In this document: piece after piece, positions 1 to 11,609 of the stretch
Layout of the letters: each line of letters begins with the position of its first letter
How positions within the stretch are numbered: position 1 is the first letter of the stretch
Virus record (IMG/VR): IMGVR_UViG_2802429218_000006
Location: 1-11,609 of that record
Strand: one strand, 5' to 3'
Length of the DNA stretch: 11,609 nucleotides
Origin: a virus
Lineage: Duplodnaviria; Heunggongvirae; Uroviricota; Caudoviricetes
Notes under the pieces: model-generated
What the model was told of the DNA's origin: nothing
The model's input: the letters and a program-made list of their open reading frames with translations, nothing else
Database searches by the model: none
Program-made: the position numbers and the translations under genes

Positions 1-12
1 GATCTTCCGCCA
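1..12 (+). tRNA. selC: 3'-terminal fragment of tRNA-Sec gene (selC): acceptor 3' strand, discriminator and CCA; also the attL core. The gene body lies upstream of the window
   Basis: GATCTTCCGCCA matches the 3' end of E. coli selC as I recall it (..GGTTCGACTCCTGTGATCTTCCGCCA). The upstream part of that sequence is duplicated at the window end. Confidence 0.55.
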
Positions 13-123
13 AACAGCATCCAGCCAGTTCCGAGATACTCCATAAAACCCTTTATATTCAATACGATGAATAATCGGTTTGTCCGTAATAGTCCGAGAT
101 AATCTCCCTGAATCCGCGAAAAA

Positions 124-143
124 TATGTATAGTAATGTGTATA
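124..143. promoter_or_regulatory. Candidate integrase arm-type binding sites (tandem TATGTATA / ATGTGTATA) in the int promoter region
   Basis: The same tandem motif pair recurs at 11517-11536 on the other side of the att core. An inverted copy (TTATACAC, 167-174) overlaps the int start codon. Confidence 0.4.
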
Positions 144-174
144 GATTTTTTATACGTAGTTTTCAGTTATACAC

Positions 175-1362
175 ATGGCTCTAACCGATATACAGATCAA
201 ACGTGCAAAACCACAAGACAAACCATACACATTGAACGATGGACAAGGTCTGTCATTGCTTATCAATCCCGATGGCTCGAAAGGCTGGCGTTTCCGTTTC
301 CGGTTTGCAGGGAAAGCGCGGTTAATGTCATTTGGCAGCTACGATTTAGTAAGCCTTGCAGAAGCACGTGAGAAGCGTGACGTCGCCCGTAAGCAGGTTG
401 CGAATGGCATTGATCCTGTAGAGGAACGCAAAGCTTCAAGACTCGCTCAAAAGCTATCAACAGAAAATTCTTTCGAAGCCATATGTCGAGAATGGCATAC
501 CAACAGAGCTGACCGCTGGACAGTGGCCTATCGAGAAGAAATCATTAAGACATTCGAGCAAGATGTGTTCCCGTTCATTGGTAAACGCCCTATCAGTGAA
601 ATCAAACCATTGGAACTGCTTGAGGTATTGCGACGAATAGAGAAGCGTGGCGCATTAGAGAAGACAAGAAAAGTACGTCAAAGATGCGGTGAGGTATTTC
701 GTTATGCAATCGTAACTGGCCGAGCTGATTACAATCCAGCACCTGATTTAGCTATCGCGCTGGCCGTACCCAAGCAAAAACATTATCCGTTCTTATCCGC
801 AGAAGAGTTACCTCATTTTATTCGAGATCTGGAGGCATATACCGGCAGTATCATTACTAAAAATGCTACAAAGATAGTTATGCTAACTGGTGTTCGAACA
901 AAAGAGATGCGCTTTGCTACATGGGATGAGATTGACCTTGAGAAGGGGATATGGGAAATCCCAGCCGAAAGGATGAAAATGCGCAGACCTCACATAGTGC
1001 CGCTTTCTACTCAGGTAATCGACCTTTTCAAGCAACTCAAGCCGATTACTGGTCACTACCCTTATATTTTTATTGGCAGGAACAACCGTAGTAAACCGAT
1101 CTCAAAAGAAAGTGTGTCACAGGTAATTGAGTTACTAGGTTACAAAGGACGTGCTACCGGTCACGGTTTTAGACATACAATGTCGACAATTTTACATGAA
1201 CAGGGATTTGATAGTGCTTGGATTGAAATTCAGTTAGCCCATGTAGATAAAAATAGTATTCGAGGTACTTATAATCATGCTCAATATCTTGATAATCGGA
1301 GAAATATGATGCAGTGGTATGCGCAGCATATATATGGAAAAGTTATACAAGAGTCTAAATAA
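175..1362 (+). CDS. int: P4-family tyrosine integrase
   Basis: 395-aa ORF with an N-terminal arm-binding-like region, then a catalytic core showing box I Arg (LTGVRTKE), HGFRH (His-x-x-Arg) and a C-terminal Tyr (IRGTYNHAQY). Sits immediately next to the selC-derived att core. Confidence 0.9.
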   Translation: MALTDIQIKRAKPQDKPYTLNDGQGLSLLINPDGSKGWRFRFRFAGKARLMSFGSYDLVSLAEAREKRDVARKQVANGIDPVEERKASRLAQKLSTENSFEAICREWHTNRADRWTVAYREEIIKTFEQDVFPFIGKRPISEIKPLELLEVLRRIEKRGALEKTRKVRQRCGEVFRYAIVTGRADYNPAPDLAIALAVPKQKHYPFLSAEELPHFIRDLEAYTGSIITKNATKIVMLTGVRTKEMRFATWDEIDLEKGIWEIPAERMKMRRPHIVPLSTQVIDLFKQLKPITGHYPYIFIGRNNRSKPISKESVSQVIELLGYKGRATGHGFRHTMSTILHEQGFDSAWIEIQLAHVDKNSIRGTYNHAQYLDNRRNMMQWYAQHIYGKVIQESK

Positions 1363-1402
1363 ATTACTCATGAAGAAATATAGTCAATTATTAGGATGAA
1401 AT

Positions 1403-3058
1403 ATGATTAGTGCAAAAAACATTCTTTTCAGCAGTCGACATACTGATGCTGATGTAACTTTACATATCAATAATGTTATAAGATACCCCAAAAAATATAT
1501 GAATAATCATATCTATATATTAGATATAGACATGTATATTCAGACTGAAGACATGAAAAATCAAGCATATATAGATAATGACATTAGAAGCCCCCTGAAA
1601 ATGCTATTTATTGGAGAGGAACTAACAGAGTCAACTTTATTTGACTTATTATCCCAATCAGAAATATCGCTTCATGAAGTTAAGGTTAAATATGAATTTG
1701 ATTATATCTGTCAGATGTCAGAAGATGGATATAGATACATCAACAATAAATTAGAAACAGTCGCTTCATTATCTTTACTTAGAGCTATTAAGGATTTTGG
1801 TGTAAACTACAATATTATAAGAAACAAATCCTTTCTAAAAAAATATTCAGACAAGATATTCTCTACGTTATTACTAGATAACACTTTCAGTTCTTATGCC
1901 TTTGAAAATGGCTATAAATATTTTAATGTCGATGATGGTGCCGTTTACCAATTACAGCCCCCAACAAAATTTATTATTTATGACGAAGAAAAACAGCCGT
2001 ATAAACTTAAGATGGAGAGTCTGTTAAATATTAATATACCTATTCATGCACTAATTGGTAAGAATGGTAGCGGGAAAACCTATTTAATTAATAAAATAAT
2101 CAAACAATCTATTTCAACTGACCTAGAAATAAGATCTTCTGGCGCAGTTTTTAGTCGAATGATAGTTTTATCAAATACAATAAATGATAAGTGCTATAGA
2201 CCGGCAAATATAACCAAAAACAAATTCAAGTTAAATAACTATCATTTTGTATCGTTAACATCAGAAAAATATTATAATAAGCTTTTCCCACGAGGGAAAA
2301 AGCTAACTCTATTTTCTTTATTAGAAAAAATACAGAAACGAGATTCTAATAAGCGAGGTAACTTTGAACAGGGGGATTTGCTTGATAGAGTTACTCAAGA
2401 TATTATTCCCGAGTTTTCTTTTTCCATTAAAACAAATCTTGGGGAGCATATTTACAATAGTTTTTTAGAGTTAACTAGACAATATGGATTAGTTAATTTA
2501 AACTCAAACTTAGACTTAATTACGAGTTCAGAAATCGAATATGCATTACCTGATGAAGATATCCATTTCTATAAAAATAATGAACCCTTTACCTTAAGCT
2601 CAGGGCAATTATCTTTTTTAGTTAGCATGTTTTCTCTAATCTCAACAATAGAGAGTAATAGTCTTATACTTATAGAGGAACCAGAAAATTTTTTACACCC
2701 AAGTTTATTAACACATTTTATAAACTCACTAACACACATTCTAAGAGATACTAATTCTATCGCAATTATGGCCACCCACTCTGCTTTGGTACTTAGAGAA
2801 ATCCCTTCAGCACAAATAACAATCCTACATAGAAGAGACAATATCACCAACTATAAAACACCGAATATTGAAACATTTGGTGCCGATACTCATCAAATAA
2901 TGATAGACGTTTTTGGTGATTTATACTCTAATGCGATATTTAGAGAAGAGCTATCAAACATTGCAAAAAACAAAACAATCGATGAATTATTAGTGCAGTA
3001 TGGTGATTTACCTTCTGATGTATTAAATAAAATCATCATGGAGAAAAATTCAAAGTGA
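1403..3058 (+). CDS. ABC-type (SMC-head-like) ATPase with a ~200-aa N-terminal extension of unknown function; first gene of the candidate defence cassette
   Basis: Walker A GKNGSGKT (aa 219-226, nt 2057-2080); ABC signature LSSGQ (aa 398-402); Walker B LILIEEPENFLHP (aa 421-433, nt 2663-); H-loop ATHS (aa 457-460). Shine-Dalgarno AGGA lies 7 nt upstream of the ATG. Strongly AT-rich codon usage unlike the backbone. Confidence 0.85.
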   Translation: MISAKNILFSSRHTDADVTLHINNVIRYPKKYMNNHIYILDIDMYIQTEDMKNQAYIDNDIRSPLKMLFIGEELTESTLFDLLSQSEISLHEVKVKYEFDYICQMSEDGYRYINNKLETVASLSLLRAIKDFGVNYNIIRNKSFLKKYSDKIFSTLLLDNTFSSYAFENGYKYFNVDDGAVYQLQPPTKFIIYDEEKQPYKLKMESLLNINIPIHALIGKNGSGKTYLINKIIKQSISTDLEIRSSGAVFSRMIVLSNTINDKCYRPANITKNKFKLNNYHFVSLTSEKYYNKLFPRGKKLTLFSLLEKIQKRDSNKRGNFEQGDLLDRVTQDIIPEFSFSIKTNLGEHIYNSFLELTRQYGLVNLNSNLDLITSSEIEYALPDEDIHFYKNNEPFTLSSGQLSFLVSMFSLISTIESNSLILIEEPENFLHPSLLTHFINSLTHILRDTNSIAIMATHSALVLREIPSAQITILHRRDNITNYKTPNIETFGADTHQIMIDVFGDLYSNAIFREELSNIAKNKTIDELLVQYGDLPSDVLNKIIMEKNSK

Positions 3059-3954
3059 GAATTTTATCTAAGCCAGAGGGTATTGATGATCTACTTAATA
3101 ATATAGATCTTAACTCATCTATTGATGCCTTTTTATCGCTCGATGAACCGACTGGAATTGCTGACTTAAGAAATAAAAAAAATGATCTCTTGAACGAAAT
3201 TGAGAATTATCACACTGAGATGATTGAACGAGGTCATTTATCACATAACACGAGAAAAAACTTCTCAAAATATAAATCCATACTTGAGTGGATTTATTAT
3301 CACCCAAGTCAGCGAAGAAAAACAGACTACATAAACTCGATACGAAAACTTTACGCCCAAAGTGGAACTCTATGTCCTTACTGTGGGGTTTCTCCTTGCA
3401 GGACATTAGACCATTACTACAACAAAGCTTTATTACCACAGTTTTCATTTCTTCCTGAAAACCTTATTCCGTGCTGTGGTGATTGTAATAGAGACAAGGG
3501 AGCAAAAAAAGCCTTTAGCAAATGGAGAAGATTTGTCAATCCATTCTATGATGATTTCTCATCGTTAGAAAAAAATGAACCTCTCATATATATAATTTTC
3601 AAAGAAAGACCAAGATCTAGAATTGACATGGAATATGTAATGACAGCCAATCATAATCTAGACTTTTTAATAAGAAAACAAATAAACTATCACATTAGAA
3701 CAGTAAGAATCCCTTTCTATCATCATGAAGCCATAAGCAATTCATTTTGGAGAAACGCGAAAGACCTAATAAAGTTTAAAAAATTAGTCACTGACGGTGA
3801 TATAGATAATACAATTTATGATAAAATCATTGATGGTTTCATAGGCAAAAACAATGCTATGAATTATGACTGGGAATATATTATTAGATATTCATTAGTC
3901 AAACTTCGTATTAATCACTGGATTTATAACAGCAACCTACCAAAATTAATGTAG
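3055..3954 (+). CDS. HNH endonuclease-domain protein; second gene of the candidate defence cassette
   Basis: Zinc-finger HNH core CPYCG..LDHYY..N..CCGDCNRDKG (aa 107-148, nt 3373-3498) flanked by ~100-aa N-terminal and ~150-aa C-terminal regions of unknown function. GTG start at 3055 overlaps the TGA stop of the ATPase (GTGA), indicating translational coupling. Same AT-rich composition as the ATPase gene. Confidence 0.85.
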   Translation: MRILSKPEGIDDLLNNIDLNSSIDAFLSLDEPTGIADLRNKKNDLLNEIENYHTEMIERGHLSHNTRKNFSKYKSILEWIYYHPSQRRKTDYINSIRKLYAQSGTLCPYCGVSPCRTLDHYYNKALLPQFSFLPENLIPCCGDCNRDKGAKKAFSKWRRFVNPFYDDFSSLEKNEPLIYIIFKERPRSRIDMEYVMTANHNLDFLIRKQINYHIRTVRIPFYHHEAISNSFWRNAKDLIKFKKLVTDGDIDNTIYDKIIDGFIGKNNAMNYDWEYIIRYSLVKLRINHWIYNSNLPKLM

Positions 3955-4144
3955 CTCCAAAGAATGCATTAGCCTTGATGGTATATTTCAGTAGCATTGA
4001 GGCTAGTGTAAGGCCTAACTGGCAGGTAGCATCGAACAAAATACAAGCGCATTTATTAATTCTCAATTAGGTTGTTTAAAAATGATTCGAAAATATTTCA
4101 CCTGCTTAGGAGAAAAGAAAAAACATTTATCACTGCCACGCGCA

Positions 4145-4163
4145 GTGCTTTCCCCGCCTCGCC
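4145..4163. other. cos site: 19-nt cohesive end of P2/P4 type
   Basis: Plus strand reads GTGCTTTCCCCGCCTCGCC, the reverse complement of GGCGAGGCGGGGAAAGCAC (the P2/P4 cohesive end as I recall it). Flanked by GC-rich hairpins at 4160-4230. Lies between the cargo and psu, as in P4. Confidence 0.8.
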
Positions 4164-4264
4164 CGCCCGCTTTGCGGGGCAGTTTTAATGCAGTTTCACT
4201 GACACGCTCAGGCCGCGCCGGGAATGGCGCGGTCTGCAGAAAATGAGGCAGGAAAACGCATGCA

Positions 4265-4297
4265 AAGCCATGCACCTTATCGATGCATGGCTTTTTT
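4265..4297 (+). terminator. Rho-independent terminator-like hairpin (10-bp perfect stem plus T6) between cos and psu
   Basis: AAGCCATGCA (4265-4274), 9-nt loop, TGCATGGCTT (4284-4293), then a T-run to 4297. The T-tail is on the plus strand, so it would stop transcripts coming from the cargo or cos side. Confidence 0.55.
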
Positions 4298-4327
4298 CAG
4301 TAAAATCGGACGGATTTTCGGGGAGTT

Positions 4328-4900
4328 TTACACAGACTGACATGATGCCAGTTGCGCACTTTTACGCGAAAAAATCATGTTCTGCGCAGGGGTGAATTTT
4401 TCACGGCTGTCATCCACCGAAGCCGCGTCAGGCCTGAATCCGATGGTCGTTAAAATGTCGCTATCCTGTGCGGAATAATTAATTTTTTCACCCTTTGCAA
4501 GCCAGGACAGAAGGGCTTCACGCAGGGCATCTGTGGCACGCTGTATGGCACAGTTTCGGGCAATGGCCGTCAGCTCACTGTAGCCCATCAGCTCCGGTGC
4601 CAGTGCCGCCGCCAGTGCTGTGCCGTGCTGCTGCATAAAATCATTCAGCCGGTCGCGGATGCTGATGTGCTGAACGGCTTCATGCGAACGAATATAACGA
4701 CCGGCGGCCTGATTCACCTGCCATTTTCTGACTTCGATAATATTGCGTAATTCGTCCAGGCGACTGACGTTTCTGCCTTCCCCGGACAGAAGCCGCAGAT
4801 ATTCCTGTTCGGCCGCAGCCAGCTCATTTTTGCGTTGCAGCCATGCTGCTTTGTTATTCTGACAGGTGTCAAAGGCCTGCTGTAAGGCTGTGCTTTCCAT
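4328..4900 (-). CDS. psu: Polarity suppression protein Psu (capsid decoration / Rho antagonist)
   Basis: 190-aa ORF, the same length as P4 Psu, in the P4 position as last gene of the sid-delta-psu operon next to cos. N-terminus MESTALQQAFDT... matches my recollection of P4 Psu. Confidence 0.85.
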   Translation of the reverse strand: MESTALQQAFDTCQNNKAAWLQRKNELAAAEQEYLRLLSGEGRNVSRLDELRNIIEVRKWQVNQAAGRYIRSHEAVQHISIRDRLNDFMQQHGTALAAALAPELMGYSELTAIARNCAIQRATDALREALLSWLAKGEKINYSAQDSDILTTIGFRPDAASVDDSREKFTPAQNMIFSRKSAQLASCQSV

Positions 4901-4973
4901 CGTTATCTCTTTCTCATCATGCTGAAGAATAAAAATACGGTGTGCGGCGACGGCCGGTGTTAACCGGCAGCCC

Positions 4974-5474
4974 TCATTCCAGACGCAGCGAATATGATTG
5001 TGTTTTTAAGCGTACTGGCGGCAGTTCCTGTTTTTCATGCAGGCTTTCTGCCAGTTCGTCCGGCGTGACCGGGCGGACAATGAAACGGTTGATGGTCTGA
5101 AGCGTTTTAAACACCAGACCACAGCCCGGATCCGTGCACACATAAAAACGCTCGGTGACTTCCTGAGACAGACGCCGCGATGTTCTTGACAGTGCAAGGC
5201 CTTTACATCTCCGACAACAATATCCGGTAACAAGCATTCTTTTCGGGCGTTTCATGCTACCGGAGGCTGACGTCAGTGAATCGCGGTATCTCTGTTTGCC
5301 TGAAATGTATTCCATTCCTGAATCTTTACAGTCAGAGAAAAAGCTTTCACTCGCTTCAAATGTCGCAGAGCAATAAATATTCCGGCACTGTGCAATCATT
5401 ATCTTGGTGCCATCGTCCATGAAATGTGCGCGACGGGTGTGAGCAACATGTCCACACGACGGGCAGTAAATCAT
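4974..5474 (-). CDS. delta: Delta, a tandem Ogr-type zinc-finger late transcription activator
   Basis: 166 aa (the P4 Delta length). The N-terminal half follows the P2 Ogr pattern (CPSCGH.AH.R..DGTK...C.N..CSATF) and a second Cys4 module sits in the C-terminal half (CCRRC...CTDPGCG). Its start overlaps the sid stop (ATGA). Confidence 0.9.
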   Translation of the reverse strand: MIYCPSCGHVAHTRRAHFMDDGTKIMIAQCRNIYCSATFEASESFFSDCKDSGMEYISGKQRYRDSLTSASGSMKRPKRMLVTGYCCRRCKGLALSRTSRRLSQEVTERFYVCTDPGCGLVFKTLQTINRFIVRPVTPDELAESLHEKQELPPVRLKTQSYSLRLE

Positions 5475-6205
5475 GACAGCAGTCCTCTGGCCTTAAGCTC
5501 TGCTCCCTGCTGGTCTATTTTGTCCTGCCACACCTTGCGCTGTGCCGGTGTGCCTGCCACCTCATAATCCATGTGCGGGAGTGTTGCCGCTGACAGTCCG
5601 GTCAGCCGGAGAACCGGCTCGCCGGTGAGGCTGATTTGCATCTGTTTAATTTTCTGTTCCAGCGATGATTTCACCTGCTGCATGACAGCCTTTTCCGGTG
5701 CGACGTAGCCCTGATGGCCGGTGGTGTTGGCGAGCGGATTTTCCTGTACCAGTATGCTCAGATGCATTGCCCGGACAAGCGCCTCACAGGTTTCATTCAG
5801 GGCGTGTTCCAGCTCATTCTCTGCATACAGACTCAGAAGGTGATGATGTGCCTTCCGGTAGGCGGTGGCCGTGCTGTCACACGCCCCTTTCAGGCGTTCA
5901 CGTTCAAAATTCAGCACCACGGCCAGATTGTCATATTCCTGTACCAGCTCCCGGCGTGCCACGCGCTCAATGTGGCGCTGTTTCAGCTCGTCGCTCAGGA
6001 CACCACCGGCTGCACGAAAGGCCGTGCGCCAGTCGTCAGCGTCGTTTCCGTCGGCCTGCGCCAGCGCATTTTTTTCCTGCTCTGCCCGTTCAATGGCCGT
6101 GACGGTCTCATCCATCAGGCGGGCGTTCTCAAGATGGGCGGCTCTGGCCTTTTCCAGTTGTGCCAGCGCGGGTTGCAGATATTCAGGGATGGTGTTGTCA
6201 GACAT
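5471..6205 (-). CDS. sid: Sid external scaffold / capsid size-determination protein
   Basis: The ATG at 6205 with a GAGGAG Shine-Dalgarno gives 244 aa, the P4 Sid length. The ORF track extends to a GTG at 6223 (250 aa), which I consider less likely. First gene of the late operon. Confidence 0.8.
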   Translation of the reverse strand: MSDNTIPEYLQPALAQLEKARAAHLENARLMDETVTAIERAEQEKNALAQADGNDADDWRTAFRAAGGVLSDELKQRHIERVARRELVQEYDNLAVVLNFERERLKGACDSTATAYRKAHHHLLSLYAENELEHALNETCEALVRAMHLSILVQENPLANTTGHQGYVAPEKAVMQQVKSSLEQKIKQMQISLTGEPVLRLTGLSAATLPHMDYEVAGTPAQRKVWQDKIDQQGAELKARGLLS

Positions 6206-6239
6206 TTTCCGGCTCCTCGTCACTTCAGGTTAAGAAAAT

Positions 6240-6295
6240 TGTGACGTACACCGGACAACAACACGACGCATTGCAGATGTGCCAGCCCTGACACA
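6240..6295. promoter_or_regulatory. Late-promoter region with two TGT-N12-ACA dyads: candidate Delta/Ogr binding sites for the divergent Psid and PLL promoters
   Basis: TGT(6240-6242)-N12-ACA(6255-6257) and TGT(6278-6280)-N12-ACA(6293-6295). The second is centred about 55 bp upstream of a plausible sid transcription start near 6230. The motif is short, so chance occurrence is possible. Confidence 0.4.
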
Positions 6296-6374
6296 GGAGA
6301 CTCATCCTCAGACCGGCAAGCCAGGAAAAGGTCGCAGGAAAAACCGGCTTACTGTTTGTTTTTTTATGTTTTAC

Positions 6375-6478
6375 TGTTCACCTCTGTTCACCATAAGAAA
6401 AAAGATAAGTAATACAGTAAGTTAAAGGGTGAGCAATCGCAGTAATGACTGTTCACCGTCTGTTCACCACTGTTCACC
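6375..6478. repeat. ori-like iteron cluster: five copies of the TGTTCACC octamer (type I iterons, alpha-binding), followed by an AT-rich stretch (6479-6570)
   Basis: TGTTCACC at 6375-6382, 6385-6392, 6450-6457, 6461-6468 and 6471-6478. The same octamer is reiterated in crr downstream of alpha, about 4.8 kb away. Confidence 0.75.
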
Positions 6479-6756
6479 CGTTCATGGACTTTTTGTGCTG
6501 TGTATTACTTTTTATTTTTATTAATTAACTGAAATAAATAAGAAAAAACAATTTGTATTTCACTATAATTTTTTCCAGCTCCTTCCAGAGCGTTTTAAAG
6601 CTATCTGGCGCTGATGTGCAAAAAACACACAGCAATTGTAAGGCTGCCGGAACAAATCCCCCCTGTTGCGTCTGCTGAAAATATTCACAAAATAAAGCGC
6701 TACCCGAAGCCGGACGGACTTATCCGGTGCTGTATGGACATTAACGAGGTAGCCCG

Positions 6757-7023
6757 ATGCAAGCTGTTTTTTCTTCCCCGTCTCCTGCCCCTGTGACGCC
6801 ACTGATGCCGCTGCCGGACATCACGCAGGAGCGTTTTTTACGTCTGCCGGAAGTGATGCACCTGTGCGGCCTGTCACGCTCGACCATCTACGAACTCATC
6901 CGTAAGGGGGAATTTCCGCCGCAGGTGAGTCTTGGCGGTAAAAATGTGGCCTGGCTGCACTCTGAAGTCACCGCATGGATGGCCGGGCGCATTGCCGGAC
7001 GCAAACGGGGGTACGACGCATGA
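6757..7023 (+). CDS. vis: Vis / AlpA-family helix-turn-helix regulator (excision and late-gene control)
   Basis: 88 aa (the size of P4 orf88/vis) with an AlpA-like HTH segment ([28 protein letters not shown]). GAGG Shine-Dalgarno 8 nt upstream. First gene of the plus-strand left operon. Confidence 0.75.
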
Positions 7024-7574
7024 TGATGCCTGTTCTGCAAAAACTCCCTTTTTCTGGCTTGCCTTTTTCCGGCATTTGCGGATATAGTTTTTCCGCTGTC
7101 GCAAAATCGGCAGCCGGGCGTAGGAACCCGAGTTACTTCAAGGCGACATATGACGCGCCATGCGTCTTTTTTTACGTCGTTGCTTCGGCACACCTGTTTT
7201 TCTGGCTGTGGTTTTTAAACCGTAGCCTCTGTCAGATAATGGTGGTCCGGGCGGGGCAGCCTTCGGGCTGGCCGGTTTCCTTGAAGGCCGGTATTCCTAC
7301 CCCCGTCCGGGCTACCACCCATGAGCGTAGGAACTCCAGTGGTAGCTGTAACTGTTACTTCAAGGAGGCTGCCATCATGGCTACAACCCTTACCCCCTCA
7401 CACCCTGAATTTGTCTTTGTGTTTGCGGCTGTCCGTCGCGCAGACCGTCATCCCCGTATCTGCATGCTTCGCACCGTCGCCGGTGATGAACGCAGCGCCC
7501 GCCGTTCCCTTGTCCGTGACTATGTGCTCTCCCTTGCTGCCCGTCTGCCGGTGGTGGAGGTGTCCCGTGCGTAA
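6975..7574 (+). CDS. Possible eta-like ORF (199 codons) that reads through the immunity-RNA region, with the kil-like ORF nested in the same frame
   Basis: A 600-nt open frame starting inside vis, upstream of the PLE-like promoter, and spanning the structured RNA region. Consistent with the nested kil/eta arrangement described for P4, but the protein is low-complexity and could be an artefact of GC-rich sequence. Confidence 0.3.
7059..7088 (+). promoter_or_regulatory. Candidate sigma-70 promoter (PLE-like) driving the immunity / left operon
   Basis: TTGCCT (7059-7064), 18-bp spacer, TATAGT (7083-7088), about 30 bp upstream of seqA. Confidence 0.45.
7118..7143 (+). promoter_or_regulatory. seqA-like target site for the immunity RNA
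   Basis: GCGTAGGAAC..TTACTTCAAGG. The two blocks are complementary to CCTTGAAG (7279-7286) and TTCCTAC (7294-7300) inside the structured RNA. Confidence 0.55.
7241..7320 (+). ncRNA. cI: CI-like immunity RNA (P4-type antisense RNA carrying seqB); boundaries approximate
   Basis: Highly structured segment: GGTGGTCCGGGCGGGG pairs with CCCCGTCCGGGCTACCACC (one G-T wobble and a 3-nt bulge), plus an internal CAGCC-TTCG-GGCTG hairpin. The internal seqB blocks are complementary to both flanking seqA and seqC. Confidence 0.5.
7325..7365 (+). promoter_or_regulatory. seqC-like target site overlapping the ribosome-binding site of the kil-like ORF
   Basis: GCGTAGGAAC (7325-7334) and TTACTTCAAGG (7355-7365) repeat the two seqA blocks. 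The second block runs straight into the AGGAGG Shine-Dalgarno of the ORF starting at 7377. Confidence 0.55.
7377..7574 (+). CDS. Small kil-like protein (65 aa); resembles the Ash/Icd-like small proteins of P4-type prophages
   Basis: Strong AGGAGG Shine-Dalgarno 8 nt upstream of the ATG. First ORF after the immunity RNA. Sequence [25 protein letters not shown]... Confidence 0.55.
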
Positions 7575-7854
7575 TAAAAAAGCCCCTCAGACCGTCTCAG
7601 CGCGTCATGACGCCCGTGAACACCTCAGCATTGAGGCTTACCATAAGCTCAACCGCGCCAGCGCCGTATCCCAGTTTGTTGGGGGTGATTTGATTCACCG
7701 TGAACTCTCCGGCCTGCATCAGCTCTACATTCCGCATATTTTCAGTTACCTGAATGAAGATATTGATTTTGTGCTGAATGAACTGAAAGCCAAAGGCCTG
7801 TGCCGCGATTTTCTCGCCCAGCAGAAAGACCGGGGAGACAGGACGCATGTTTGA
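7567..7854 (+). CDS. Epsilon-sized small protein (95 aa) with a GTG start; position and size match P4 epsilon, the derepression protein
   Basis: No in-frame ATG exists. The GTG at 7567 is preceded by GGAGG at 6-nt spacing and overlaps the stop of the kil-like ORF. Product length is exactly 95 aa. Identification is by synteny and size only. Confidence 0.45.
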
Positions 7855-8308
7855 TTTTCCCCAGCCCGGTGAGATTTACCGTTCTGCCGGTTTTCCCGAT
7901 GTGGCCGTGGTCGGCATTCTGGAAGACGGTATTCCGTGGGAAATGCCGTACCGCTGCCCGGACATTGTCTGGAACCCGTACCGCCGTAAATTCAGTATCC
8001 TTGTGCGTATCCTCGCTGACGGGCGCACCACAGACATCCCGCTGGGGCGTTTTCTGCGGGAATTTACCTGTGACCGTCCTGACCTGTTCAAACGCAGCCC
8101 CGTAAACCGGCATGCGGTACTGAAAGAAATGGCCGGAGACCCGGAATTACAGAAATGGCGGGAGAAATATCTGGATATTTACCCGCAGGACCCTGTTCCG
8201 GTCAGCCGGGCGGCACCGGTGGCGCGGGAATGGCGGGAAATTCCCCGCACGGAGCCTGACCCGGCCCCCCCCCCCCGGATAACAGTTACCGCAATTATCT
8301 GTAATTAA
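7847..8308 (+). CDS. Hypothetical protein, orf151-like by position (153 aa); contains a C12 homopolymer near its 3' end
   Basis: ATG overlaps the stop of the preceding ORF (ATGTTTGA). The C12 run at 8265-8276 encodes the PAPPP segment of the product. Confidence 0.6.
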
Positions 8309-8439
8309 AAAACGACACCCGAAAAATTAAATGTGCGTATTCGCGCAGGGATACGCACGTCTTCAGGAGACGCAGATATGTCTTATCAGTTAATGCAACC
8401 GGCACGGAATGCAGTCATCTGTCACAGGGAGGAAAGCAA

Positions 8440-8760
8440 ATGAAAACACCCTTACCGCCCGTCTTACGCGCTGCCCTTTACCGTCGCGCTGTCGCCTGTG
8501 CCTGGCTGACCGTGTGCGAACGTCAGCACCGCTACCCGCATCTCACCCTTGAGTCACTGGAGGCGGCCATCGCCGCTGAGCTGGAAGGCTTTTATCTGCG
8601 CCAGCACGGTGAGGAAAAAGGGCGCCAGATAGCCTGTGCCCTGCTGGAAGATTTAATGGAATCCGGCCCCCTGAAGGCCGCGCCGTCGCTGTCCTTTCTC
8701 GGGCTGGTTGTGATGGATGAACTCTGTGCCCGTCACATAAAAGCGCCGGTACTGCACTGA
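8440..8760 (+). CDS. cnr: cnr-sized protein (106 aa); copy-number-control candidate
   Basis: GGGAGG Shine-Dalgarno. 106 aa equals P4 cnr (orf106), and it lies immediately upstream of alpha as in P4. Identification is by synteny and size only. Confidence 0.5.
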
Positions 8761-8774
8761 AGGAGAACAACACC

Positions 8775-11108
8775 ATGAAAATGAACGTAACCGCCACCGT
8801 CAGCCATGCGCTCGGCCACTGGCCGCGTATTCTCCCGGCGCTGGGGATTCAGGTGCTGAAAAACCGTCATCAGCCCTGTCCGGTCTGTGGCGGGAGTGAC
8901 CGCTTCCGTTTTGATGACAGGGAGGGGCGCGGCACCTGGTACTGCAATCAGTGTGGTGCCGGTGACGGCCTGAAACTGGTTGAAAAGGTGTTTGGTGTTT
9001 CCCCGTCCGACGCGGCCGCAAAGGTGGCTGCCGTGACCGGCAGTCTGCCACCGGCTGACCCGGCAGTGACGGCTGCCGCCGGTGCTGAAACAGACGCTGC
9101 CCGGAAGAACGCCGCCGCACTGGCACAAACCCTGATGGCGAAAACCTGTCCCGGAACCGGTAACGCCTACCTGACCCGCAAGGGCTTTCCCGGCCGGGAA
9201 TGCCGGATGCTGACCGGCACACACAGAGCCGGTGGCGTGAGCTGGCGCGCCGGTGACCTTGTGGTGCCACTGTATGACGACAGCGGCGAACTGGTTAACC
9301 TTCAGTTAATCAGTGCTGACGGCCGTAAGCGCACCCTGAAAGGCGGACAGGTCAGGGGCACCTGTCACACCTTTGAAGGACAGAATCAGGCCGGAAAACG
9401 TCTGTGGATAGCGGAGGGATACGCGACCGCACTTACCGTGCATCACCTGACCGGTGAAACGGTGATGGTGGCGCTTTCTTCCGTGAATCTCCTTTCTCTG
9501 GCCAGCCTTGCCCGGCAGAAGCATCCGGCCTGTCAGATTGTCCTTGCCGCAGACCGTGACCTCAGCGGTGACGGCCAGAAAAAAGCCGCCGCAGCCGCAG
9601 ATGCGTGTGAAGGTGTTGTTGCCCTGCCGCCGGTCTTCGGTGACTGGAATGATGCCTTCACGCAGTACGGCGGGGAAGCCACCCGTAAGGCCATTTATGA
9701 TGCCATCCGGCCACCGGCTGAAAGCCCGTTCGACACCATGAGCGAAGCGGAGTTTTCCGCCATGAGTACCAGCGAAAAGGCCATGCGTATCTATGAGCAT
9801 TACGGCGAGGCGCTCGCGGTCGATGCCAACGGCCAGCTTCTGTCCCGTTATGAAAATGGTGTCTGGAAGGTGCTGCCACCACAGGACTTTGCCCGGGATG
9901 TGGCCGGGCTGTTTCAGCGGCTGCGTGCGCCGTTCTCCTCCGGGAAGGTGGCCTCCGTGGTGGACACCCTGAAGCTGATTATTCCGCAGCAGGAAGCCCC
10001 CTCCCGCCGCCTGATTGGCTTTCGTAACGGCGTGCTCGACACGCAGAACGGCACGTTCCACCCGCACAGTCCGTCACACTGGATGCGCACCCTGTGCGAT
10101 GTGGATTTCACCCCGCCGGTGGAAGGGGAAACGCTGGAAACCCACGCCCCCGCGTTCTGGCGCTGGCTTGACCGTGCCGCCGGTGGCCGTGCGGAAAAAC
10201 GCGACGTGATTCTGGCCGCACTGTTTATGGTGCTGGCAAACCGCTACGACTGGCAGCTCTTTCTGGAGGTGACCGGTCCCGGCGGCAGCGGCAAAAGTAT
10301 CATGGCCGAAATAGCCACCCTGCTGGCCGGGGAGGATAACGCCACGTCGGCCACCATCGAGACGCTGGAATCCCCGCGTGAACGTGCCGCGTTAACTGGC
10401 TTCTCACTGATACGCCTGCCGGACCAGGAAAAATGGAGCGGCGACGGTGCCGGACTCAAGGCCATCACCGGCGGCGATGCGGTGTCCGTTGACCCGAAAT
10501 ACCGGGATGCATACTCCACGCATATCCCGGCGGTAATTCTGGCCGTGAACAATAACCCGATGCGCTTCACCGACCGCAGCGGCGGCGTGTCACGCCGGCG
10601 GGTGATTATTCACTTCCCGGAACAGATAGCCCCGCAGGAGCGCGACCCGCAGCTTAAGGACAAAATCACCCGCGAGCTGGCGGTCATCGTGCGTCACCTG
10701 ATGCAGAAGTTCAGCGACCCGATGCTCGCCCGGTCACTGCTTCAGTCCCAGCAGAACTCAGACGAGGCACTGAACATCAAACGGGATGCCGACCCGACGT
10801 TTGATTTTATCGGCTATCTGGAAACCCTGCCGCAGACCAGCGGCATGTATATGGGGAACGCCAGTATCATCCCGCGTAATTACCGTAAATACCTCTATCA
10901 CGCCTATCTGGCCTACATGGAGGCAAACGGCTACCGGAATGTACTCAGTCTGAAAATGTTCGGGCTGGGGCTGCCGGTGATGCTGAAGGAATACGGACTG
11001 AATTACGAGAAGCGCCATACCAAACAGGGGATACAGACCAACCTGACGCTGAAAGAGGAAAGCTACGGCGACTGGCTGCCAAAATGTGACGACCCTGCAA
11101 CAACCTGA
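8775..11108 (+). CDS. alpha: Alpha primase-helicase replication protein
   Basis: 777 aa (the P4 alpha length). N-terminal zinc-ribbon primase motif CPVCGGSDRFRFDD..WYCNQCG, a TOPRIM-like region, and a C-terminal helicase Walker A GPGGSGKS. AGGAG Shine-Dalgarno upstream. Confidence 0.92.
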   Translation: MKMNVTATVSHALGHWPRILPALGIQVLKNRHQPCPVCGGSDRFRFDDREGRGTWYCNQCGAGDGLKLVEKVFGVSPSDAAAKVAAVTGSLPPADPAVTAAAGAETDAARKNAAALAQTLMAKTCPGTGNAYLTRKGFPGRECRMLTGTHRAGGVSWRAGDLVVPLYDDSGELVNLQLISADGRKRTLKGGQVRGTCHTFEGQNQAGKRLWIAEGYATALTVHHLTGETVMVALSSVNLLSLASLARQKHPACQIVLAADRDLSGDGQKKAAAAADACEGVVALPPVFGDWNDAFTQYGGEATRKAIYDAIRPPAESPFDTMSEAEFSAMSTSEKAMRIYEHYGEALAVDANGQLLSRYENGVWKVLPPQDFARDVAGLFQRLRAPFSSGKVASVVDTLKLIIPQQEAPSRRLIGFRNGVLDTQNGTFHPHSPSHWMRTLCDVDFTPPVEGETLETHAPAFWRWLDRAAGGRAEKRDVILAALFMVLANRYDWQLFLEVTGPGGSGKSIMAEIATLLAGEDNATSATIETLESPRERAALTGFSLIRLPDQEKWSGDGAGLKAITGGDAVSVDPKYRDAYSTHIPAVILAVNNNPMRFTDRSGGVSRRRVIIHFPEQIAPQERDPQLKDKITRELAVIVRHLMQKFSDPMLARSLLQSQQNSDEALNIKRDADPTFDFIGYLETLPQTSGMYMGNASIIPRNYRKYLYHAYLAYMEANGYRNVLSLKMFGLGLPVMLKEYGLNYEKRHTKQGIQTNLTLKEESYGDWLPKCDDPATT

Positions 11109-11124
11109 CCATCATGACTCATCT

Positions 11125-11149
11125 GACCGGCATCTGCCGGTCTTTTTTT
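11125..11149 (+). terminator. Rho-independent terminator downstream of alpha
   Basis: GACCGGC (11125-11131), loop ATCT, GCCGGTC (11136-11142), then T7 (11143-11149): a perfect 7-bp stem. Confidence 0.8.
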
Positions 11150-11166
11150 ATCCCTGAATTCCCCGA

Positions 11167-11468
11167 AGGTGAACAATCCACTGTTCACCCTTCACCGTAT
11201 ATTCACTCGTTATCACACTGAAATTAAAAGAGAAAAACGAAAGGTGAACAGTGTGAACAATCAAATCAAAAAAAACTTTTTTTCTCCCTGTGTGATTTCA
11301 GTACGGGGGATTAATCACCGGTATGAGTCACACCGGCAGAATGCCGGAGGTGAAGAATCGAATGTTCACCCTTCACCCATTATTCACTACCTATCATACT
11401 GAAATAAAAGGAGAAAAAAGAAAGGTGAACAGTGTGAACAGTTCTTTCGAAAAAAAATTTTTTTCCTG
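11167..11468. repeat. crr (cis replication region): two ~121-bp direct repeats (11167-11287 and 11348-11468, period 181 bp), each carrying TGTTCACC / GGTGAACA iterons and ending in an A8/T8 tract
   Basis: The repeats align along their whole length with a few substitutions. Iterons at 11168-11175, 11182-11189 and 11243-11250, plus the equivalent positions in the second copy. Confidence 0.8.
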
Positions 11469-11516
11469 AGTTAACGTGCGTGAAGATACGTGTAAAAATT
11501 AATCGATAGATATTAT

Positions 11517-11536
11517 ATGTATAAGGATGTGTATAA
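11517..11536. promoter_or_regulatory. Candidate integrase arm-type binding sites (ATGTATAA / ATGTGTATAA) on the attR side
   Basis: Same tandem motif pair as at 124-143 on the attL/int side. Confidence 0.4.
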
Positions 11537-11593
11537 ATGAATTATAATAGAAAAATATAAACGATTTGAATCAAATGGTTATATGGCAATTTT

Positions 11594-11609
11594 GACTCCT
11601 GTGATCTTC
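11594..11609. repeat. attR core: direct repeat of the selC 3' end (GACTCCTGTGATCTTC, truncated by the window edge)
   Basis: Matches the selC segment immediately 5' of the bases at window positions 1-12. The T at 11593 where selC has C marks the edge of identity. Confidence 0.6.

Follow-up and report, generated by a model that had tools for sequence, protein, structure and literature searches.

A P4-like satellite prophage at selC with a P4-type cos site adjoining a rare ATPase/HNH cassette

The stretch of DNA analyzed here (the window, 11,609 bp) is, judging from its gene content and its ends, an intact P4-like satellite prophage integrated at tRNA-Sec (selC). Window positions 4145-4163 read as the cohesive end of a genuine, functional-looking P4-type cos site, and it is very probable that the element can be packaged as a P4-type satellite, including its cargo, a two-gene AAA-ATPase/HNH cassette. 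A preliminary description of this DNA had proposed that the cassette would be packaged and spread with the satellite; sequence comparison supported this interpretation overall. The identity and context of the cos sequence, the intactness of the genes, the att boundaries, the length of the unit and the boundaries of the variable region were determined directly and are presented in the following.

A search for the 19-nt cohesive end GGCGAGGCGGGGAAAGCAC, tolerating up to 3 mismatches, gave a single site in the window, which is an exact 19/19 match on the minus strand at 4145-4163 (plus-strand reading GTGCTTTCCCCGCCTCGCC). In 200 dinucleotide-preserving shuffles no match was obtained, even at 3 mismatches, and the analytic chance expectation for an exact 19-mer in 11.6 kb, both strands considered, is 8e-8. 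The same sequence forms positions 1-19 of the linear P4 record (X51522 / NC_001609) and the annotated cosL and cosR of P2 (NC_001895). The alignment with P4 extends through psu up to the end of the P4 record at window position 4164, and the 19-mer directly adjoins it. The distance to the stop of the 299-aa ORF (3954) is 190 nt and the distance to the psu stop codon is 164 nt. Thus, a P2/P4-type cohesive end about 190 bp beyond the HNH stop, as previously described, was confirmed as exact and unique. In some P4-like satellites a 186-like 19-mer replaces the P2/P4 type, namely GGCGTGGCGGGGAGAGCAT in E. coli WP2-W18-ESBL-10 (L009, 3873-3891) and GGCGTGGCGGGGATAGCAT in Buttiauxella (L071, 6986-7004). 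These satellites may track a different helper. The features around the cohesive end are:

4145-4163, minus strand: 19-nt cohesive end, unique exact match, identical to P4 1-19 and P2 cosL
4139-4192, minus strand: 54-nt cos core (6 nt, 19-nt cohesive end and 29 nt), 52/54 identical to P4 and 51/54 to P2
4264-4294, both strands: hairpin in the cos-psu interval that resembles a terminator on either strand, folding z-scores of -3.6 (plus) and -5.4 (minus)

The core was defined by aligning the window with the circularised P4 and P2 junctions. In P4 orientation, the shared block consists of TGCATTAAAAC(C/T)GCCCCG(CA/TG)AAGCGGGCG, the 19-mer and (C/T)GCGCG, and P4 and P2 differ at 3 positions. It corresponds to the 55-bp cos sequence cited for P4 (PMC2231350). 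For comparison, eight siblings (selC satellites from complete E. coli genomes) were fetched without using any cos pattern, and the core was invariant or nearly so in them; the 19-mer is exact in 7/8 and of the 186-like variant in one (L009). Two positions distinguish the core of the window from that of P4. A4144 is the common type and matches P2, but A4181 is rare: position 4181 is G in all eight siblings, in P4, in P2 and in 59 of 60 IMG/VR contigs, which were picked by a pattern spanning 48 of the 54 core nucleotides and are therefore informative on the flanks only. The one other occurrence of A is in L037, which is a different P4-like element. At the level of the sequence, A4181 is the sole caveat on the function of the core.

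The loop dinucleotide of the inverted repeat in the core (window 4172-4175) separates satellites from helpers. It is CTTTGCGG in 41/41 loci with a P4-type psu-side flank, the window included, and CTTCACGG in 24/24 loci with P2-type flanks, without exceptions among loci L003-L070, a set in which the contigs were chosen by sequence pattern. Single-strand folding of the core gave no signal (z = -0.09). The hairpin at 4264-4294 has 11-13 bp, is identical in P4 and all siblings, and would block read-through from int and the cargo into antisense psu. A consensus terminator scan of 3900-4400 found nothing, since the 9-nt loop of this hairpin just exceeds the limit of the scanner.

Satellites and helpers differ in which side of the shared core carries the variable DNA (window 4139-4192; P2, L010, 33546-33593 and 1-25; L011-L070). 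In P4-like elements variability begins 6 nt past the 19-mer, on the side of P2 gene Q. In P2-like phages the Q side is kept and divergence starts directly after ...TTTTAATGCA, on the old/tin side, which is the psu side in P4. Together, both borders delimit the core of approximately 55 bp.

The boundaries of the element were resolved using a near-identical element in E. coli BS15R-A (NZ_CP063349), in which the 23-nt repeat GACTCCTGTGATCTTCCGCCAAA is found at both ends; according to this alignment, tRNA-Sec ends at window position 12. The window starts with GATCTTC (1-7), which is repeated at 11603-11609. The spacing of the att repeats, and hence the excised unit, is 11,602 bp compared to 11,624 bp for P4 (99.8%). 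Both earlier statements on this point, i.e. that cos lies inside the element and that attL and attR are about 11.6 kb apart, close to the P4 genome size, are borne out by the att repeats at the two window ends. The P4 genes for hijacking and replication are all intact. No tRNA was detected when the window was scanned, as it contains just 12 nt of tRNA-Sec. The features of the satellite outside the cos region and the cargo are:

1-14, plus strand: partial attL core; 1-12 are the last 12 nt of tRNA-Sec (selC), part of the 23-nt repeat
175-1362, plus strand: tyrosine integrase, 395 aa, selC-type; Pfam Arm-DNA-bind_3, Phage_int_M and Phage_integrase; 38.9% identical to P4 Int (tblastn)
4328-4900, minus strand: psu (capsid decoration, Rho antagonist); Pfam Psu 1e-88; 98.9% to P4 Psu
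4974-5474, minus strand: delta (helper late-gene transactivator); Pfam Ogr_Delta; 97.6% to P4 Delta, full length
5471-6205, minus strand: sid (external scaffold, small capsid); 99.2% to P4 Sid residues 1-244
6757-7023, plus strand: vis/ORF88 (AlpA-type excisionase, regulator); 98.9% to P4 ORF88
7095-7322, plus strand: immunity RNA region; Rfam RF01394 70.5 bits and RF01695 86.1 bits, both above the gathering scores
7567-7854, plus strand: epsilon (helper derepression); 98.9% to P4 epsilon
8775-11108, plus strand: alpha (primase-helicase); seven Pfam domains; 99.0% to P4 alpha
11163-11465, plus strand: crr, cis replication region; two direct repeats of ~120 bp; aligns to P4 crr 4291-4590
11594-11609, plus strand: partial attR core, GACTCCTGTGATCTTC, start of the attR copy of the 23-nt repeat

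Window 4164-11463 is 97.3% identical to P4 4291-11624 in reverse orientation, ending exactly at the end of the P4 record. Alpha, ORF106 (100% identical to P4), epsilon, Vis, Sid, Delta and Psu were found full length and ungapped against P4 using tblastn. For sid, the start equivalent to that of P4 is at 6205, and the mechanical ORF reaches 6223. The P4 protein of orf151 is matched with 97.2% identity over residues 1-143 of 151, and an overlapping ORF in the cI region with 84.7% over residues 28-138 of 138. Within the immunity region, Rfam places isrK at 7095-7172 and the C4/CI immunity RNA at 7235-7322. SatelliteFinder defines P4-like satellites (Type A) by seven core components (PMC10085698), and all seven (Int, Psu, Delta, Sid, the AlpA-type regulator, epsilon and alpha) are present in full length. 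The gene order, psu-delta-sid followed by alpA-epsilon-alpha, is the canonical P4-like one. Likewise, the tRNA site, the direct repeats and the length of ~10-12 kb by which P4-like elements are recognized were found as tRNA-Sec, the 23-nt repeat and the 11,602-bp unit. Neither the ORFs nor the Pfam matches of the window include P2 structural genes. Related AT-rich repeats (ATATGTATA..ATGTGTATA.A) flank the att core at window 123-154 and 11515-11546; they look like the arm-type integrase binding sites of a non-P4 attP.

The region between int and cos was compared among the satellites of the sibling set, one of which has the same cargo and seven of which have other cargo. The cargo region of the window comprises:

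1321-4138, strand not applicable: variable (hotspot) segment of 2,818 bp, delimited by blastn against the 7 other-cargo siblings and by alignment
1403-3058, plus strand: cargo gene 1, AAA/ABC-type ATPase (PDC-M01A, PtuA-like); Pfam AAA_21; PADLOC PDC-M01A 1.5e-48, PtuA 1.3e-36
3055-3954, plus strand: cargo gene 2, HNH-motif nuclease, 299 aa (PDC-M01B, PtuB-like); PADLOC PDC-M01B 7e-27; motif CPYCG...DH...N...CCGDCN

In blastn searches against the seven other-cargo siblings, only window 1 to ~1320 (83-90%) and 4136/4139-11609 (97-98%) align. In the multiple alignment, these siblings are unrelated to the window from 6 nt left of the 19-mer, and homology resumes 6-9 nt before it, so the variable slot directly adjoins the cos core. 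The cargo part (1363-4138) has a GC content of 30.8%, in contrast to 55.3% in the P4 core. The 190-nt 'spacer' past the HNH gene is part of the module that is exchanged: the same-cargo sibling has an identical sequence there, and the other siblings have unrelated ones. The region thus has variable content between int and cos/psu on an otherwise conserved backbone, as described for the hotspot of P4-like satellites. The cargos of the other seven siblings are a reverse transcriptase with SLATT, an anti-phage dCTP deaminase, GapS4a/b, a P-loop NTPase, a protein kinase pair, an AIPR protein and a large ATP-binding protein; the eight siblings therefore represent eight cargo types. The final ~40 nt of int lie within the variable segment. 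Furthermore, the integrase segment (83-90%) is far more diverged from the selC siblings than the other backbone (97-98%). Exchanged tracts larger than the hotspot itself are suggested by the sequences.

Unit lengths are 10,673-11,467 bp in the seven other-cargo siblings and 11,333 bp in the same-cargo sibling, in which delta is truncated (partly deleted). With 11,602 bp, the unit of the window is at the top end of this range, still shorter than P4. IS-bearing copies span 13.7 and 15.2 kb. In strain MSI001 (NZ_CP076645.1, 48619-63857), a same-cargo satellite carries IS5-like and IS66-family insertions and the matched span is 15.2 kb. This exceeds what the small P4 capsid can hold, and the copy has probably lost the ability to be packaged in small heads. 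Compared to the same-cargo sibling (L002), the window is 99.1% identical over 1-4885 (int-cargo-cos-psu) and 93.6% over 5352-7179 (sid to vis), which indicates that the same cargo is found on two different P4 backbones. A rhuM pseudogene fragment was observed to the right of attR in 7/8 selC siblings (L002, 20424-20585, and equivalents in L003-L009), and L007 has an apparently intact rhuM. The fragment is probably what is left of an earlier island that occupied selC.

The two cargo genes overlap by 4 nt. For the ATPase, the start chosen in the RefSeq siblings is 150 nt downstream of that of the longest ORF (1403-1552), giving 501 aa compared to 551 aa. The 299-aa protein has weak PtuB and HNH matches and no HNH call was obtained from Pfam at default thresholds; it is designated an HNH protein because of its motif, its matches to PADLOC models and its name in RefSeq. 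NCBIfam scores were 36.7 bits for PtuA (cut-off 500) and 20.7 bits for PtuB (cut-off 150). Hence, the cassette is Septu-like or PDC-M01 in its predicted architecture and is not assigned to the retron-Ec78 PtuAB equivalogs. A defence-like function is predicted from its domains (PADLOC PDC-M01A/B and PtuA-like matches). A near-perfect hairpin directly follows the HNH stop (3965-4010, stem of ~16 bp, z = -2.9, without T-run) and is part of the cargo module.

The cargo was found in 6 of 5,426 complete E. coli genomes, in every case in the selC P4-like element. The phage collection contained no cargo match, distant mode included, and a contig scan with the HNH protein gave three loci, a number that is no measure of distribution as the method detects close relatives only. 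Relatives of both proteins with 54-58% identity are encoded in Buttiauxella ferragutiae and Rahnella bonaserana, where they occupy the same slot: int, ATPase, HNH and a cos-like site, followed by P4-like genes. In Buttiauxella, psu, delta, sid, vis, epsilon and alpha match at 37-68% (delta over residues 1-35 only), and a 186-type 19-mer lies ~90 nt past the HNH stop. In Rahnella, vis and alpha match at 57-58%, delta and sid are weaker (29-31%), psu and epsilon are without match in the element, and a more divergent cos-like block lies ~25 nt past the HNH stop. The presence of these relatives in the same slot implies that this cargo type is resident in P4-like satellites across genera.

Cleavage, packaging and transfer of the element are inferred from the biology of P4. 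After infection by, or induction of, a P2-family helper, Int and Vis would excise the 11,602-bp circle, which alpha would replicate from ori/crr. Delta and epsilon would switch on the helper late genes, and Sid and Psu would make the capsid protein of the helper assemble into small capsids. Its terminase is expected to recognise the core of ~55 bp (4139-4192) on the closed circle and to introduce nicks staggered by 19 nt; following this single cut at cos, the whole unit would be packaged. In the virion DNA, the cassette (1403-3954), which fills the single variable slot of the satellite, would then lie at the left end, taking the place of gop/beta/cII in P4. The substrate of P4 packaging is covalently closed monomeric circles, which are cut once at cos (PMC2231350). 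As a closed circle is cut only once, everything from attL to attR would be packaged, whatever its distance from cos. The preliminary description had derived packaging of the cargo from its closeness to cos. The location of the cargo inside the att-bounded unit stands; the argument from proximity does not, because of the single cut. On this analysis, co-packaging depends on a cargo inside the att sites, an intact cos and a total length fitting the capsid, and not on closeness to cos. Int shares only 39% identity with its P4 counterpart, and Vis is P4-like. Since such a pairing of int and vis occurs widely, the element is predicted to be competent for excision.

Two other explanations were weighed against a packageable satellite. 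The 19-mer could derive from the remnant of a P2-like helper prophage, or be a chance GC-rich match, and would then be no satellite cos. The same 19-mer does occur in P2-family phages, and megablast over 4131-4205 matches P2 and P2-like phages of Yersinia and Salmonella. However, the psu-side flank is contiguous with P4 over 7.3 kb at 97.3%, the loop dinucleotide is of the P4 type as in all 41 P4-type loci, P2 structural genes are missing from the window, and the chance expectation given above is minute. A P2 prophage remnant as source of the 19-mer was rejected due to the P4-type flanks, and this explanation as a whole is extremely improbable.

Alternatively, the cos site could be authentic by descent, while this copy has become a domesticated, immobile island, the cargo of which is inherited vertically and remains unpackaged, be it due to A4181, to a mismatch between Int and Vis or to the lack of a compatible helper. 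The rarity of A4181 (1/60 IMG/VR contigs, no sibling, neither P4 nor P2) would agree with this, as would the rarity of the cargo (6/5,426 genomes, always selC) and the decay in sibling copies by IS insertions and delta truncation. The P4 genes of the window, in contrast, are of full length and 97.6-100% identical without frameshifts (except for orf151 and the ORF in the cI region, see above), and the att copies are intact at both ends of the element. The same cargo on two P4 backbones is a sign that backbones have recombined and speaks against a simple clonal inheritance, and P2 and P4 are both functional despite three differences in the core. Domestication of this copy is therefore considered unlikely, and a packageable P4-type satellite is the preferred explanation.

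It is conceivable, if quite doubtful, that cos has a further role: cargo might be swapped between satellites and helpers when terminase cuts at cos, or through recombination that starts in the shared core, or natural variants of the core (A4181, the 186-type 19-mer of L009) might tune which helper packages the element. If either were true, proximity to cos would be relevant to the acquisition of cargo and not to its packaging.

Taken together, the window appears to be a complete, mobilisable P4-like satellite; consequently, the ATPase/HNH cassette would be an accessory module that can be transduced, as opposed to a fixed part of the chromosome. For annotation, this means that the cassette should be listed as predicted defence cargo of a satellite.

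In comparison to known systems, the cos site has the same 19-nt end as P4, 52/54 core positions, the same distance of 164 nt past the psu stop, the same orientation and the same hairpin between psu and cos. It differs by the substitutions A4181 and A4144, and on the side away from psu the resemblance to P4 ends after 6 nt, because the ATPase/HNH cassette replaces gop/beta/cII. Compared to the cos of P2 (and relatives such as 186), the P2 19-mer is identical, 51/54 core positions agree and the TGCGCG on the side of the left arm is the same as in P2, whereas the loop dinucleotide of the window is of the P4 and not of the P2 type; in P2, the variable cargo (old/tin) is found across the core from where the satellite has its own. 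The cassette shares with Septu (PtuA/PtuB) and PDC-M01 the overlapping two-gene operon of an AAA_21-type ATPase followed by an HNH nuclease. It differs in that the NCBIfam PtuA/PtuB equivalog scores are far below the cut-offs and the PDC-M01 candidate models match best.

A cos-adjacent defence hotspot of P4-like satellites was described by Rousset et al. 2022 (PMC9122126), with Septu among the known systems in it; these hotspots are short, likely because the capsid holds only ~12 kb (PMC9122126). A 2026 NAR study builds on this hotspot (PMC13586616). For P4-like satellites, a hotspot next to cos, a size limit set by the capsid and cargos of the Septu type have thus all been published, and the arrangement is not new; no new principle is added, and the present case is the correct recognition of a published architecture. 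The element shares with the hotspot of Rousset et al. the slot from int to cos/psu, the varying cargo, the near-identical backbone and a total size capped near the P4 capsid capacity, and its cassette of ~2.8 kb compares with a reported hotspot mean of 2.6 kb (PMC9122126; also PMC13586616). There is no difference in kind from that hotspot, of which the window represents a rare member: an infrequent cargo allele carried by a P4-like backbone that integrates at selC.
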